From a bacterium (GTDB lineage: Bacteria > Verrucomicrobiota > Kiritimatiellia > RFP12 > UBA1067), in the NCBI GenBank assembly GCA_037133395.1, contig JBAXOG010000005.1, positions 985-64,984 on the forward strand: a stretch of 64,000 bases of DNA, in the 5' to 3' direction. Position 1 is the stretch's first letter. Every line of letters begins with the position of its first letter. Below are positions 29,781 to 35,536 of this stretch, piece after piece. The position numbers and the translations under genes were made by a program. A model generated the notes under the pieces. That model searched no databases, was not told the origin of the DNA, and saw nothing but the letters and a program-made list of their open reading frames with translations.

Positions 29781-31535
29781 ATGGGGAAGCGAATCGTGAA
29801 ATGCTGGGCGGGGGCGGTCGTTGCGATAGGTGTTTTGTCAGTTCCTTTTTTCATCAGCGGGTGCCGTCTTGTAGCGAAAGAGCCAGCGAGAATAGTTCAC
29901 AAAGGACCAGGAACATCTTTCGATCTGCAAGGCTTCATCGACCACGCGCTCGCGGCGGGGCAAAAGCGGATTGTCGTGCCGCCGGGCCGGTATCGCGTGA
30001 AGCCGCAACGCCAATGTCATCTGCGGTTGCGCGACCTTCAGGATGTCGAGGTCATGGCCATGGATGTCGAGATGGTCTGTACCGAGACCACGCTGGCCCT
30101 GAATATCGACAACTGTCGCAATCTGGCGTTGCGCGGATTGACCATCGACTATGATCCGTTGCCGTTCACGCAAGGACGCATTGTTGCCATGGCACCCGAC
30201 AAAGCGTGGCTGGAGTTTGAGATCATCGACGGCTATCCCGAAAATCTTGAAATGCGGATCGAGATCTTTGACCAGCGCACCGAATTGCTCAAAGTCAATA
30301 CCCGCTACGATTGGGGGCCTTTCCAGTCCTTGGGCAATCACCGTTATCGCGTGTCACGCGGTTCAGGCCATCGTTTTGATCCCAATAAGGATTTGGAGGA
30401 AGTAGGCGATATTCTGGTGACCAACAGTTCGACTGCGCCCGGCGGGCAGGCGGGGCATGCGATTGTGACGTCTAATTCGCAGAAAGTGGTGCTGGAGGAT
30501 ATCCGGCTCTATGCCTCTAACTGTTTCAGCTATCTGGAACATGACTGCGATGGAAACACCTATCGCCGGTGTAGCATTGATCGCCGTCCGCTGGCAGAGG
30601 ATCTTCGGTCACGCGGGTTGCGACGCCTGCGCTCCAGCAATGCAGACGCTTTTCATAGCAAGCACGCAATCCGCGGACCGCAGATCATCAGTTGCACGGC
30701 GAAGTATCAGGGCGATGATTGCGTGAATATTTGCGGCGAATACTACATGGTCATGGGGAGTAGCCAGAATAAAATTCGCATGTTATCGCATCGCAACAGC
30801 AACATCTCTGTCGGCGATTCCGTTGAGCTGGTTTCGTATACGGGGGAACGTCTGGCAGATGCGAAGGTTGTTGCGATTGAAGCGGACGGCAAGGTCAAGC
30901 CTGAGGAGCAGACGTTTCTCAAAGCTCAGCACATGAACCAAGGCACAAAGGAAGTTCTGTCCAAGCCAAATACGGATGCCTGGACGCTGACACTGGATCG
31001 GGCAGTGGACCTGCCGATGGGTTCCGTGGTCGCATCGACACGCCATACCGGCAACGGATTTTTGGTCAAGGATTGCGATTTCGGTTTCAACCGTTCGCGC
31101 GGTATCCTCATCAAGGGCAGCAACGGGCAGGTCATCGGTAACCGTCTGACAGGCTGTTGGATGGCCTCCGTGTTGGTCGCGCCTGAATGGTGGTGGCTGG
31201 AGTCGGGCAGTAGCAGCGATCTGGTCATCGCAGACAATCAGATTACCGACTGCCGCGCAACAGCCATTGAGGTCGTAGCCCGTGGCGGCACCGGAGCGCT
31301 CGCGCCGAGCGGCGCCCACAAGAATATTGCCATCCGTAACAATACGATTCTGAATTCACCACTGCCCACTATTTACGTGTCTTCAACGGACAGACTGGTG
31401 ATTTCCGGCAATCAGTTTAAGCCGCTGGATCCCTCGCTGAGTCGCTTCCGCTGGGGAGAAAAAAAGCCGGTTGCGATTGTGACCGAAGCGTGCAGTCAGA
31501 CCGAAGTGCAGCCGGAAGGAAACAACACATTATGA
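29781..31535 (+). CDS. Right-handed beta-helix lipoprotein; paralogue of 3680..5518
   Basis: The ORF track gives 29745..31535. ATG 29781 follows AGGAGG (29770-29775) after 5 nt. The leader is MGKRIVKCWAGAVVAIGVLSVPFFISGC (lipobox ISGC). It carries LRGLTIDYDPLPFTQGRIVAM and later NRSRGILIKGSNG / IADNQI / IRNNTI turns. Confidence 0.7.
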   Translation: MGKRIVKCWAGAVVAIGVLSVPFFISGCRLVAKEPARIVHKGPGTSFDLQGFIDHALAAGQKRIVVPPGRYRVKPQRQCHLRLRDLQDVEVMAMDVEMVCTETTLALNIDNCRNLALRGLTIDYDPLPFTQGRIVAMAPDKAWLEFEIIDGYPENLEMRIEIFDQRTELLKVNTRYDWGPFQSLGNHRYRVSRGSGHRFDPNKDLEEVGDILVTNSSTAPGGQAGHAIVTSNSQKVVLEDIRLYASNCFSYLEHDCDGNTYRRCSIDRRPLAEDLRSRGLRRLRSSNADAFHSKHAIRGPQIISCTAKYQGDDCVNICGEYYMVMGSSQNKIRMLSHRNSNISVGDSVELVSYTGERLADAKVVAIEADGKVKPEEQTFLKAQHMNQGTKEVLSKPNTDAWTLTLDRAVDLPMGSVVASTRHTGNGFLVKDCDFGFNRSRGILIKGSNGQVIGNRLTGCWMASVLVAPEWWWLESGSSSDLVIADNQITDCRATAIEVVARGGTGALAPSGAHKNIAIRNNTILNSPLPTIYVSSTDRLVISGNQFKPLDPSLSRFRWGEKKPVAIVTEACSQTEVQPEGNNTL

Positions 31536-34500: not shown

Positions 34501-35536
34501 CAAGTTGTACGCCAATACCATGGATAATCCAGAGACCTATCCGACCCCCGAGCCGCAGCCGGTCGCCTTTGTCAAACCTGCTCCTGCCACGCCTCGTCAT
34601 GCGCCTGTAGCGACTGCTGACGGCTGGCCGTTCGACGCGGCAGAAGCCCAACGCCGTCAATCCGCAGCCGGTCTGCCGAAGGAACTGCAACTCGCGTGCG
34701 GCACGAACAGTAACGTGAAACTGGACTTTGTGCTGATCCCGGCCGGCGACTTCGTGCTCGGCAATGCCACTGGTGTCGACGACGAGTATCCGCCGACACG
34801 TGTTCGCATCGAGAAGCCCTTCTACATGTCGCGCAAGGAAATTTCTAACGCCCAGTTCCGCGAATTCGACGTCGCGCACGACAGCCGCACGATCGACACC
34901 TACACCAAGGATCATACCGGGCCCGGTCCATCGATGAACAACGCGGAGCAGCCTGCTGTGCGCGTAAGTTGGCAGGAAGCCATGGCGTTTTGCGATTGGT
35001 TTGGCCGTACCGCTGGTCAGCGGTGCGCATTGCCGACCGAGGCGCAATGGGAGTATGCTTGCCGCGCCGGCACCGCAACGCCGCTCTGGTTCGGCGACCT
35101 TGCCGCCAACTTCGGTCAGTATGCCAACCTCGCAGACAAGAGCCTCCGAAACGGTCTGCGTACCGTCAGGCCGTGGATTCCGGCTATTGAAACCGTCGAT
35201 GATGGCGCGACGATCACCCAAAACGTGGCCGCCTACCAGCCAAACCCGTGGGGTCTATACAGTATGCACGGCAACGTCGCTGAATGGACGCGTTCGCTTT
35301 TCAAGCCTTATCCATATCGTGACGACGATGGCCGTAACGCCACCACGGCGAAAAGCGTTGGCCAACGCGTTGTGCGCGGCGGCTCGTTTTGGGACCGCCC
35401 GTACCGTGCCACCTCGTCAGCTCGGCGCAACTACGAACCTTGGCAGCGGGTCTTCGATGTCGGGTTCCGCGTCATCATTGACCCCGACACCGCAATCAAG
35501 GTGGCCAGCGTCAGCAACCGCGCGGACGCGCACTAG
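31532..35536 (+). CDS. Giant secreted multidomain protein: PA14-like module, helical region, PD40/TolB-like beta-propeller, two CxxCH haem-c motifs and a C-terminal FGE-sulfatase-fold domain lacking the catalytic Cys pair
   Basis: The ORF track gives 31490..35536. ATG 31532 overlaps the upstream TGA as ATGA. Signal peptide MKTMLISILSLSAMLSTA. PA14-like GFGSDDGIEVWLNGKKI...LLVKIFNIGGSCGFYF. YLPDGKIMF and NPDGTG propeller motifs. CVGCH at 34010-34024 and 34160-34174. FGE fold: RVSWQEAMAFCDW, LPTEAQWEYACRAGT, HGNVAEWT, VVRGGSF. Confidence 0.7.
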   Translation: MKQGVTMKTMLISILSLSAMLSTAKPTAGEANFYVKKDSWTATMLATRDRYQTLADAAPLRAGPWSSTAALKAKSFGDALFPEQGVNLDSKDEKGNPVWRQHAEWVDGVAQPLSASGSSSTYLFRVITAKMAATVTAGFGSDDGIEVWLNGKKIHSVDAPRGVSSGQDKVALALEAGENRLLVKIFNIGGSCGFYFNLELAPPEDVWPQLAKDYPVQAAWLKRDTDGRLTAWLGGRNSVDNEKALISRPLAALGQPGVLHQEMAKLEQGGVSAKDSRWLDLYFRACQVRAVKEDAARFNTDALRRAIEDLSRTYPGQYTRGPEFLKRLEACKKKNEDVRLAADCGEMTDLKLLNDMLALQREALLANPLMNFERLLLVKRDSLGLPQNWQGNTSISRNGYDNEIVVLSPAHPGGKLTTLFKPQGKEFVGDVDLNFDGTRMLFSMPTKDAWQVWEIKADGSGLRQLTPDISKIDNYDACYLPDGKIMFNSTMNIHGVPCVGGGDKVGNLCRMDADGKNVRMLCFEQDQDWYPRVLSDGRVMYTRWEYSDLPHYHSRLLMSMNPDGTGQLSLYGSNSYWPNSIFYARQIPDAPSKIIAVISGHHGVRRMGELVLFDLARGRTEANGAVQRIPGYGKKVEPVIADGLVQGSWPKFLHPYPLSDKYFIVSCKPTPESRWGIYLVDVFDNMLCLAEEAGYELFEPIPLRARVKPAAIPDRVRPEMKEGTVILSDVYAGPGLKGVQHGTVKALRVYSFHFGYWGVGGHANIGVDGSWDGRRIIGTVPVYKDGSANFKVPANTPIAIQPLNERGEAVALMRSWFVVMPGENASCVGCHESVNSSPLIKPNLAMRRAPSAITPWNGPERPFSFRREVQPVLDKSCVGCHDGSKAGCPDLRGNRKGDRNFDASYLALMPFVRRPGPESDFHVLSPMDYHVSTSELFQMLRKGHHNVALDVDAWSRLTTWADLNVPCHGTWGEHRGSPMGAPEALRNEYRKLYANTMDNPETYPTPEPQPVAFVKPAPATPRHAPVATADGWPFDAAEAQRRQSAAGLPKELQLACGTNSNVKLDFVLIPAGDFVLGNATGVDDEYPPTRVRIEKPFYMSRKEISNAQFREFDVAHDSRTIDTYTKDHTGPGPSMNNAEQPAVRVSWQEAMAFCDWFGRTAGQRCALPTEAQWEYACRAGTATPLWFGDLAANFGQYANLADKSLRNGLRTVRPWIPAIETVDDGATITQNVAAYQPNPWGLYSMHGNVAEWTRSLFKPYPYRDDDGRNATTAKSVGQRVVRGGSFWDRPYRATSSARRNYEPWQRVFDVGFRVIIDPDTAIKVASVSNRADAH

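Follow-up and report, generated by a model that had tools for sequence, protein, structure and literature searches.

An exported HzsA-related protein with an FGE-fold domain and an N-terminal module of sugar-binding type in a polysaccharide locus of a Kiritimatiellia bacterium

The CxxCH motif is the site of covalent haem-c attachment, and two such motifs are found in HzsA, the alpha subunit of hydrazine synthase (HZS) of Kuenenia stuttgartiensis (PDB 5C2V, chain A), in which a helical N-terminus is followed by a six-bladed propeller, a middle domain ending in CxxCH and a class-I cytochrome c domain with the second motif. At haem alpha-I of HZS the motif histidine binds zinc and the iron is ligated by Tyr591 at position His+4, and the function of haem alpha-II is unknown (PMC12607021). 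HzsA homologues outside anammox were already described in 2025: in their passages on these proteins Hagglund et al. report distant alpha homologues with two haem motifs and canonical ligation, some of them encoded beside fused beta-gamma homologues, and note FG-GAP repeat and ABC-transporter substrate-binding genes nearby (PMC12758564). Here we analyze an HzsA-related protein with additional domains, which is encoded on the plus strand at 31532..35536 (1334 aa, NCBI MEI6644663.1) in a 64,000-nucleotide stretch of contig JBAXOG010000005.1 from a bacterium of the RFP12 lineage of Kiritimatiellia; this whole stretch is referred to as the window. We show that the target protein is an exported full-length HzsA homologue with both haem sites conserved and an N-terminal module of sugar-binding type, and that it belongs to a very large family.

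The target shares with HzsA the order of the domains listed above, both haem motifs can be aligned, and relatives of the target also have a beta-gamma-like partner. It differs, however, in that the sequence identity is only 17%, that Tyr591 is replaced by Asn in the target family, and that a C-terminal domain with the fold of the formylglycine-generating enzyme (FGE) and the N-terminal sugar-binding module are added. Furthermore neither anammox genes nor a beta-gamma partner are present in the window, and the hosts of the family are heterotrophic bacteria of the Planctomycetes–Verrucomicrobia–Chlamydiae (PVC) group, Bacteroidota and others. A text search of the paper by Hagglund et al. gave neither the word FGE nor the word sulfatase, and its passages on the non-anammox homologues describe neither N-terminal carbohydrate-binding modules nor an operon with cupin, DhaKL and LsrF-like genes (PMC12758564). 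Our literature searches likewise returned nothing on the FGE fusion, on variants with carbohydrate-binding modules or on a conserved sugar-type operon, and a paper on fucoidan and Planctomycetota mentions neither FGE nor cytochromes.

Domain architecture of the target protein

An AlphaFold2 model of aa 290-1334 was built from an alignment of 101 sequences and reached a mean predicted local distance difference test score (pLDDT) of 91.7 and a predicted template modeling score (pTM) of 0.90; the latter implies that in the model all domains, including the FGE-fold domain, have a fixed arrangement. In the secondary structure of the model a helical arm precedes about 24 strands, which form six blades; the middle domain that comes next is rich in beta structure, and after a helical domain a coil linker leads to the FGE fold. 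The top match of a Foldseek search of the PDB is 5C2V chain A (E 1.9e-27, 774 columns over the 768-residue chain, TM score 0.61 when normalized to the target), followed by PvdO, many FGEs and TolB propellers. Since this match covers the whole chain, the body of the target is a full-length HzsA homologue and not the HZS_alpha middle domain alone. The first-pass annotation, which was made from the sequence alone, had compared a propeller followed by a di-haem region with the layout of the HZS alpha subunit, and the case for this comparison is now stronger than first stated. When solved structures were sought by sequence, only FGEs, PorK/GldK, PvdO and HZS-alpha (5c2v_A) were found, and the NCBIfam equivalog model hydrazine_alpha (NF052339) failed with 49.4 bits for the target and 32.9 bits for its paralogue versus a cutoff of 800.

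The helical region already noticed in the sequence (aa ~206-365, 32147..32626, supported by models and invariant columns) is present in both AlphaFold models, which cover aa 21-313 and aa 290-1334, and from aa ~303 (ALRRAIEDL...) it forms an arm which is common to the whole family. It is followed by the six-bladed beta-propeller (aa ~375-735, 32654..33736), which is defined by the secondary structure of the model, by fold matches to the HZS-alpha and TolB propellers (E ~1e-11) and by invariant columns; among the 101 homologues the motifs NYDACYLPDG, GVPCVGGG, RWEYSDxPH, MNPDGT and SGHHG are invariant. This region had been read as a PD40/TolB-like propeller and as the part best conserved between the two paralogues of the window. 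The TolB-like propeller fold stood, but Pfam PD40 gives no match to the target, so that the propeller is assigned by fold only, and the middle domain is slightly more conserved (62% versus 55% identity). The HZS_alpha middle domain itself (aa 742-832, 33755..34027; Pfam PF18582, E 3.5e-32, 111 bits versus a cutoff of 26.6) contains the first haem motif at its end.

The target and its paralogue each have exactly two CxxCH motifs, as the first-pass annotation had stated. In the alignment to HZS-alpha the counterpart of motif 1 of the target (C827-V-G-C830-H831, 34010..34024) is the haem alpha-I motif CSGCH, and that of motif 2 (C877-V-G-C880-H881, 34160..34174) is the haem alpha-II motif CAMCH. 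From the composition 0.006 motifs are expected, and two or more motifs were found in 0 of 20000 shuffles of the target and in 1 of 20000 shuffles of the paralogue. Among all open reading frames (ORFs) of at least 200 aa in the window only the two paralogues contain CxxCH. The motifs are kept in the homologues: C827, G829, C830, H831, C877 and C880 are invariant in the 101 homologues, H881 is conserved in at least 90%, and among 150 diverse representatives of 50%-identity clusters nearly all complete members have exactly two motifs about 50 aa apart. The second motif lies in a helical haem-2 domain of the cytochrome c type (aa ~844-994, 34061..34513), which was delimited by model, alignment and fold and in which the invariant H944 as well as H909 and H968 (conserved in at least 90%) are candidate distal ligands. 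The profile alignment to HZS ends after the haem alpha-II motif and does not reach His772 of HZS. A proline-rich linker, visible in sequence and model, connects this domain to the FGE fold (aa ~995-1064, 34514..34723).

At position His+4 after motif 1 the family has an invariant Asn, N835 (CVGCHESQN versus CSGCHYGSY in HZS). Because the position of Tyr591 is occupied by Asn, ordinary histidine ligation of haem 1 is to be expected, and the same histidine ligation is reported in the relevant passages of Hagglund et al. for other non-anammox homologues (PMC12758564). The cytochrome families of Pfam and NCBIfam gave only sub-threshold matches (Cytochrome_CBB3, Paired_CXXCH_1), and the haem assignment therefore rests on the motifs, on their conservation and on the homology to HZS. 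It is plausible that the two CxxCH sites together with the Sec signal described below make the target a c-type cytochrome, and in Bacteroidota relatives the gene of the cytochrome c synthase CcsBA adjoins the family gene. The earlier proposal of a redox-active protein agrees with these observations.

The C-terminal FGE-sulfatase fold seen in the first reading is borne out by Pfam (PF03781, E 3.4e-46), by the alignment to human FGE and by fold matches of the domain (aa 1065-1315, 34724..35476) to FGE structures with E ~1e-14. With the human (SUMF1) and bacterial FGEs the domain shares the fold and the structural motifs LPTEAQWEYA, GNVxEWT and RGGS..., but equivalents of C336 and C341 are missing. 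In the alignment GGSYMCHRSYCYRYR stands opposite GGSFWDRP---YRAT, C336 corresponds to D1288, which is nearly invariant (at least 90% of the 101 homologues), and C341 falls into a deletion. Judged from this alignment the target is not a formylglycine-generating enzyme, since both catalytic, copper-binding cysteines are gone; in further contrast to FGEs it is predicted to be periplasmic and is fused to a di-haem body. A profile of the family matches PvdO with 5.8e-29, PorK/GldK with ~2e-28 and FGEs with ~4e-26. With the cysteines lost and with PvdO and PorK/GldK scoring no worse than FGEs, neither "nonheme iron enzyme" nor [quoted passage not shown] is supported as a database name. PvdO (5HHA) and PorK/GldK, the best profile and fold matches of the C-terminal domain (E 6e-29 and 2e-28 when rounded), are exported as well, and PvdO and PorK also have no catalytic cysteine pair. 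Unlike the target, however, they are stand-alone proteins or lipoproteins without a haem domain, and neither the role of PvdO in pyoverdine maturation nor the structural role of PorK in the type IX secretion ring fits the context described here. Within the domain E1103, H1116, R1144, N1199 and D1224 are invariant in the 101 homologues.

The long plus-strand ORF extends from GTG 31490 to 35536, and we judge the gene to be real. Translation likely starts at ATG 31532 or at ATG 31550: the former is the first ATG and overlaps the stop codon of the upstream gene as ATGA, and the latter, the second ATG, is preceded by a better Shine-Dalgarno sequence (AAGGGG). Public databases hold both versions of the protein, and MEI6644663.1, a protein from a metagenome-assembled genome (MAG), is named "SUMF1/EgtB/PvdO family nonheme iron enzyme" by NCBI. 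Either start codon leads to a classical Sec signal peptide ending in ...MKTMLISILSLSAMLSTA|KP. From ATG 31532 it comprises aa 1-24 (31532..31603, MKQGVTMKTMLISILSLSAMLSTA followed by KP, read directly from the sequence), and the orthologues of the target have the N-terminus MKTMLISILSLSAML. The signal peptide had been recognized before, and the periplasmic or surface location proposed at first is in line with predicted export signals in both paralogues.

Between signal peptide and helical arm the target has a PA14-like beta-sandwich (aa ~60-200, 31709..32131, with the motif GSDDGIEVWLNG...GENRLLVKIFN), which was assigned by fold only. The AlphaFold model of aa 21-313 (293 residues, pLDDT 89) shows this sandwich together with a helical bundle, and its best fold matches in the PDB (Foldseek) are the PA14 carbohydrate-binding domains 6x8d and 5j6y with E 9e-6 to 1e-5; these matches are weak, with ~87 columns and TM scores of 0.25-0.41, and other sugar-binding sandwiches follow closely. 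Pfam PA14 does not match the target at E<=1. Of the PA14-like jelly-roll proposed at first, the fold match thus stands and the match to the Pfam hidden Markov model does not; to call the module PA14-like by fold is reasonable but not proven. Only 25 homologues of the module were found; in many of them the sequence continues into the helical arm of the family and in several into the core, so that these homologues appear to be pieces of the same type of fusion protein.

The PA14-like module is an N-terminal add-on which most family members do not have. In most of them the shared arm begins directly after the signal peptide, and a sizeable minority carries 250-900 extra N-terminal residues. Pfam analysis of 34 N-terminally extended representatives identified F5/8 type C domains in six, NPCBM in three, Laminin_G_3 in two, CBM6 in one and a SASA esterase in one. 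The earlier description of the protein as glycan-directed agrees with this, as modules of the carbohydrate-binding type are predicted at the N-termini of both paralogues and F5/8 type C, NPCBM, Laminin_G_3 and CBM6 domains occur at the same place in other members. The full architecture from PA14-like module to FGE fold is also encoded, among the matches listed, in contigs assigned to Planctomycetaceae, Limisphaerales, Pirellulaceae and Armatimonadetes.

A paralogue with 46% identity to the target is encoded at 44099..48154 on the plus strand (NCBI MEI6644667.1, annotated from ATG 44186). Its signal peptide, (M)KTKLTILATLLLASSTLLAAQD, lies upstream of ATG 44186, the first ATG, and can be reached only from an ATA codon. 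This ATA 44099 is located five bases after AAGGAGG and overlaps the upstream stop codon as ATAA, and orthologues with at least 90% identity (1351 aa) begin exactly there with MKTKLTILATLLLAS (MKTKL...). The true start is thus probably ATA 44099 and not ATG 44186, and either a rare initiation codon is in use or the start codon is damaged in this copy; the annotated MEI6644667.1 is a truncated form without signal peptide. As first noticed, the paralogue has an NPCBM/NEW2 module in place of the PA14-like one (aa 82-156, 44429..44653; Pfam PF08305, E 1e-9, 39 bits versus a cutoff of 23.9). It further contains the HZS_alpha middle domain (PF18582, E 7.2e-33), the haem motifs CVGCH (46595..46609) and CIGCH (46748..46762) and the FGE-fold domain (47369..48142, Pfam E 5e-44). 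Between the paralogues the identity is 62% in the middle domain, 55% in the propeller, 51% in the FGE domain and 44% in the haem-2 domain, and the N-terminal modules are unrelated (12-22% identity over few aligned columns). In a neighbor-joining tree of the core the two proteins fall into different clades, the target next to a Kiritimatiellaeota protein and to Planctomycete-like proteins of the operon type introduced below, the paralogue next to Akkermansiaceae and Kiritimatiellae proteins. Module gain has therefore happened repeatedly, which supports the first description of the N-terminal modules as swapped.

The family and its recurring gene neighbors

A search with the core of the target (aa 381-1040) in a collection clustered at 90% identity returned more than 6700 proteins. 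Among the best 120 of these the closest match is a Kiritimatiellaeota MAG protein with 73% identity, and nearly all are proteins of 1000-1150 aa with the domains HZS_alpha and FGE-sulfatase; the same Pfam pair is present in the homologues with 52-73% identity. Whereas alpha homologues are called few in the passages of Hagglund et al. (PMC12758564), the FGE-fused form alone comprises here 6421 clusters at 50% identity which match the core at E<=1e-3 (1509 at E<=1e-30). In the sample of 150 diverse representatives 109 have the FGE domain. In data with one genome per species at least 594 stretches encode a relative (594 of 600 among the matches listed). The hosts among the matches listed are on the one hand PVC and allied bacteria (Planctomycetota, Verrucomicrobiota, Kiritimatiellia, Lentisphaerae, Hydrogenedentota, Armatimonadota) and on the other hand Bacteroidota (Parabacteroides, Tannerellaceae, Rikenellaceae and others); cultured hosts include Parabacteroides sp. 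PF5-9 and Intestinicryptomonas porci. Two or three family copies are found on many contigs. The target is thus not unique but has thousands of homologues, and the exact protein is already in the NCBI database under a generic name, the names used in the family being "HzsA-related protein" and "SUMF1/EgtB/PvdO family nonheme iron enzyme".

The outgroup in the neighbor-joining tree is a distinct clade of HzsA-like proteins which have no FGE domain and of which some possess a third CxxCH. Genes of this clade (L003:13048-16173, L019:701-4720, L024:10557-12977, L026:2361-5291, L034:15298-17949, L068:14552-17773 and L079:522-3560, where L numbers denote loci of relatives) often adjoin an FGE-fused copy and a beta-gamma-like gene.

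We analyzed the neighborhoods of the relatives by BLAST and clustering of 930 flanking ORFs of 86 loci, and partner genes were counted within 10 kb in 85 distinct loci. One set of genes recurs across phyla. In Parabacteroides sp. PF5-9 (L064, 6451-18821) the order is IclR regulator, beta-gamma-like protein, cupin, HzsA-FGE, fused ResB/CcsA, DhaK, DhaL and LsrF-like protein, and similar sets are present in L066, L069, L075, L076, L052, L002 and L004. The beta-gamma-like protein of Parabacteroides (591 aa) combines a propeller with a di-haem part similar to cytochrome c peroxidase (CCP) and MauG; it matches the NCBIfam models for hydrazine synthase beta-gamma (hydrazine_BC), beta and gamma with E 1e-29, 4e-25 and 1e-18, far below the cutoffs of these models. 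The cupin (232 aa) is exported and related to D-lyxose/D-mannose isomerases (PDB 7nzo 5e-8, 2y0o 2e-7), and in all eight loci having it (8/8) the cupin carries a twin-arginine translocation (TAT) or lipoprotein signal. The LsrF-like, aldolase-family protein scores 458 bits versus a cutoff of 297 with the NCBIfam equivalog of the LsrF 3-hydroxy-5-phosphonooxypentane-2,4-dione thiolase. Within 10 kb of the family gene the beta-gamma-like protein is encoded in 16/85 loci, the IclR regulator in 10/85, the cupin and the LsrF-like protein (59-100% identical across phyla) in 8/85 each and Dak1 in 7/85; fused ResB/CcsA is found next to the family gene in Parabacteroides and other Bacteroidota. In the tree the target is in the same clade as the members with this type of operon.

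In three independent sequences the alpha-FGE body and the beta-gamma-like protein are parts of one polypeptide with four CxxCH motifs, namely in P0198 (2831 aa), in P0202 (3230 aa) and in a protein of a Lentisphaeraceae contig (L053:5300-14680, 3126 aa), and these giant proteins also hold an N-terminal extension. Going by gene structure, the fusions indicate that alpha-FGE and beta-gamma-like protein act jointly.

Possible roles of the HzsA-FGE proteins

The first-pass annotation had placed the target in a hydrolase cluster, and the window is indeed a polysaccharide-degradation locus, with two glycoside hydrolases (GH) of family GH106, one GH95, two GH127 and two GH43 enzymes, SASA esterases, a sulfatase, a LacI regulator and GH110-like beta-helix proteins next to the family genes; one of the GH43 enzymes is fused to a SASA esterase domain and another SASA esterase is separate. 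The GH106, GH95, GH127, GH43 and SASA genes suggest a substrate which is rich in rhamnose, fucose and arabinose, acetylated and sulfated. This context is, however, special to the window and not typical of the family. Homologues of the window genes are rare among the 930 flanking ORFs of the relatives (sulfatase in 8/86 loci, each glycoside hydrolase in at most one).

To the reading that the family members are haem oxidoreductases of the periplasm with substrates derived from carbohydrates, and that the target is tethered to glycan here in a polysaccharide locus, we give a probability of about one half. After export both CxxCH sites would receive covalent haem in the periplasm. Haem 1, ligated by the motif histidine, would lie at the interface of propeller and middle domain, if its placement follows that in HZS, and would be the catalytic center or next to it, and haem 2 would relay electrons to or from a partner. 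The FGE-fold domain without the cysteines, resembling PvdO and PorK, may be a substrate-binding or auxiliary catalytic module. The enzyme would then oxidize or reduce a carbohydrate-derived substrate, while the carbohydrate-binding module would hold the protein on the polysaccharide attacked by the neighboring glycosidases, esterases and sulfatase. By analogy with the relatives the partner, whose gene would then lie beyond the window, is probably a di-haem propeller protein of the beta-gamma-like type.

A more specific version, which we offer tentatively and would ourselves not bet on, is that the HzsA-related/FGE-fusion protein is the alpha component of an unrecognized periplasmic system of alpha and beta-gamma proteins with four c-type haems and often an exported cupin. 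This system would oxidize sugars or glycans and not nitrogen compounds, its product being converted via DhaKL and the LsrF-like enzyme to dihydroxyacetone phosphate (DHAP) and an acyl-CoA, and the two copies of the window, both bearing carbohydrate-binding modules, would act directly on a sulfated polysaccharide rich in rhamnose, fucose, galactose and arabinose. A speculative scheme can be drawn up from the known reactions of LsrF and DhaK: the exported cupin would make a ketose, the haem system would oxidize it to a 2,4-diketo sugar, DhaKL would phosphorylate the hydroxymethyl group beside the ketone, and the LsrF-like enzyme would cleave the product to DHAP and acyl-CoA, which for the 6-deoxyhexoses rhamnose and fucose released by the locus would be lactoyl-CoA.

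Several observations weigh against an action on carbohydrates. Beta-gamma-like protein, cupin, CcsBA, Dak1/2, LsrF-like protein and IclR regulator have no tblastn match within the window, no further ORF of at least 200 aa with CxxCH is present there, and beta and gamma subunits are not encoded in it. Weak fold matches are the sole support of the PA14 assignment. Where the haem pockets lie with respect to propeller and FGE domain is inferred by analogy with HZS. To our knowledge there is no precedent for a sugar dehydrogenase which uses only haem, and many of the hosts are strict anaerobes. We also considered a conserved pair of beta-helix and HzsA-FGE genes as a feature of the family and rejected it, as among the 930 ORFs of the 86 loci there is no homologue of the beta-helix gene upstream and a single GH110-like gene downstream of a family member. 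Because the beta-helix partner is not shared by other loci, it may be incidental that the target lies among polysaccharide genes. An enrichment of carbohydrate-active enzymes near 32 other N-terminally extended members was likewise not found in the immediate neighbors. According to the passages of Hagglund et al. on the homologues none of these has an experimentally confirmed function (PMC12758564), and in the passage of van Vliet et al. on the FGE-domain genes of Kiritimatiellales it is speculated that such genes are inactive or have another role (PMC6388578).

It is possible, but in our view rather unlikely, that the protein is instead a non-catalytic accessory for redox or binding purposes, either a glycan-anchored c-type cytochrome which shuttles electrons or a scaffold in which propeller and FGE fold are interaction modules as in TolB and PorK/GldK. 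Electron-transfer proteins tethered by carbohydrate-binding modules are known from polysaccharide degraders, e.g., Cbp2D/E of Cellvibrio and the cytochrome domains of fungal cellobiose dehydrogenase, and would be models for such a shuttle. In PorK/GldK, matched by the domain with E ~2e-28, the FGE fold has a purely structural role, the propeller is TolB-like, besides the haems no recognizable catalytic cofactor motif is present, and even in HZS haem alpha-II has no known function (PMC12607021). On the other hand many polar residues are invariant in the propeller (RWEYSDxPH, SGHHG, H654, H762) and in the FGE domain, which is more like an active site than a docking surface, and the family is linked with a CCP/MauG-like partner and with an operon for a catabolic kinase and thiolase. 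Tethered haemo-dehydrogenases of polysaccharide degraders, such as fungal cellobiose dehydrogenase and the pyranose dehydrogenase of the AA8-AA12-CBM1 type with its six-bladed catalytic propeller, work with flavin adenine dinucleotide or pyrroloquinoline quinone together with haem b. They resemble the target in their logic, a cytochrome domain being joined in one secreted protein to a carbohydrate-binding module and to a propeller or catalytic domain, but the likeness is one of analogy only: there is no relation in sequence or fold, and the target has only c-type haem motifs and neither a flavin nor a pyrroloquinoline quinone domain.

The match to the whole alpha-subunit fold, the conservation of both haem sites and the beta-gamma-like partners, which in relatives are adjacent or fused and match a lactonase-type nitrous oxide reductase propeller model with E 3.6e-13, could also point to nitrogen-oxide chemistry of the HZS type together with such a partner (reduction of nitric oxide, conversion or detoxification of hydroxylamine), the glycan module being incidental. 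We regard this as very unlikely, because an invariant Asn stands in place of the ligand Tyr591, the score with the hydrazine_alpha model is 49 bits versus a cutoff of 800, neither the window nor the annotated neighborhoods of the relatives showed any nitrogen-cycle gene, the recurring neighbors are sugar-type enzymes, and the family occurs in gut Bacteroidota and Verrucomicrobiota. In the relevant passages of Hagglund et al. alpha-Tyr591 and alpha-Cys303 are absent from the non-anammox homologues and hydrazine synthesis is rejected for them (PMC12758564). Even less probable appears to us a function in sulfatase maturation, with the active-site cysteine of exported S1 sulfatases being turned into formylglycine by the FGE-fold domain and the haems taking the place of copper and O2 as oxidant. 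The window does encode an S1 sulfatase of the Cys type (18136-19965, motif CSPTR at aa 78). Moreover the match to the FGE-sulfatase family is strong, and sulfatase genes lie within 10 kb in 8/86 loci. However, about 90% of the loci have no sulfatase neighbor and some adjacency is expected by chance, the genomes of PVC bacteria being rich in sulfatases. C336 is replaced by the nearly invariant D1288 and C341 is deleted, PvdO and PorK/GldK score as well as FGEs or better, and the conserved operon partners are unrelated to sulfatases.

Such an activity would explain the FGE genes of anaerobes, since according to van Vliet et al., in the passage on these genes, the strictly anaerobic Kiritimatiellales F1 and F21 paradoxically have 20 and 11 PF03781 genes (PMC6388578). 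Fusions of the HzsA/FGE kind are likely part of the answer to this excess: as they have no catalytic cysteines, at least some "FGE" genes of strict anaerobes may not encode FGEs. The two database names quoted above are misleading for thousands of proteins. HZS has been treated as nearly without relatives. Its alpha body, combined with an FGE-fold domain and sugar-binding modules, and in relatives also a beta-gamma partner, now prove to be common among ordinary heterotrophs, which is of relevance to how anammox arose. If the family indeed acts on carbohydrate-derived substrates, it would be a new class of haem enzymes in polysaccharide degradation and provide an oxidative, haem-dependent step in the breakdown of glycans by PVC bacteria and gut Bacteroidota, and it would bear on the question from what hydrazine synthase evolved. 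This could be tested in culturable Parabacteroides and Opitutales strains which carry the conserved operon. Taken for itself the locus is of real but not exceptional interest, and of more if the hypothesis holds for the family.

Further genes of the window

Four divergent right-handed beta-helix proteins are encoded at 3680-5518, 29745-31535, 39608-41374 and 41862-44102; one carries GH110-type GLAA-B barrel domains and another weakly matches the structure of a GH110 alpha-1,3-galactosidase (E 0.002). Each of the two HzsA-FGE genes is translationally coupled to a beta-helix gene upstream. For the target this is the gene at 29745..31535 (plus strand), whose product is distantly similar to GH110 alpha-galactosidases and whose stop codon forms the ATGA overlap; for the paralogue it is the gene at 41862..44102 (plus strand), whose stop codon TAA overlaps the ATA start as ATAA. 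The two helix proteins are 24% identical (E 6e-23). The beta-helix gene at 3680-5518 is flanked by the paralogous pair of GH106 alpha-L-rhamnosidases (642-3536 and 5515-8373).

Four large proteins with passenger-associated transport (PATR) repeats and no other recognizable domain (11317-14631, 16257-18080, 25799-28723 and 35813-39400), whose genes are scattered among those of the glycosidases, may be surface-anchored proteins of the locus. The S1 sulfatase at 18136-19965 needs formylglycine maturation, and neither a genuine FGE nor an anaerobic sulfatase-maturating enzyme (anSME) is encoded in the window. A ThuA-family protein is encoded near the end of the locus (59475-60437). Among the relatives a ThuA gene (L005:11551-12450) is located directly downstream of a family member, beside GFO/IDH/MocA oxidoreductases with TAT signal, a placement which hints at a link with periplasmic 3-keto-sugar chemistry.

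Scans of the window for tRNA genes and Rfam families found nothing. Two islands of low GC content (~0.49-0.50 versus ~0.57) are present inside the locus at 8944-10805 and 24566-25490. Each of them encodes an AbiEii-type nucleotidyltransferase toxin of a type IV toxin-antitoxin system together with a small upstream partner; this partner is a DUF6577 protein at 8944-10805 and a 95-aa ORF at 24566-25490.

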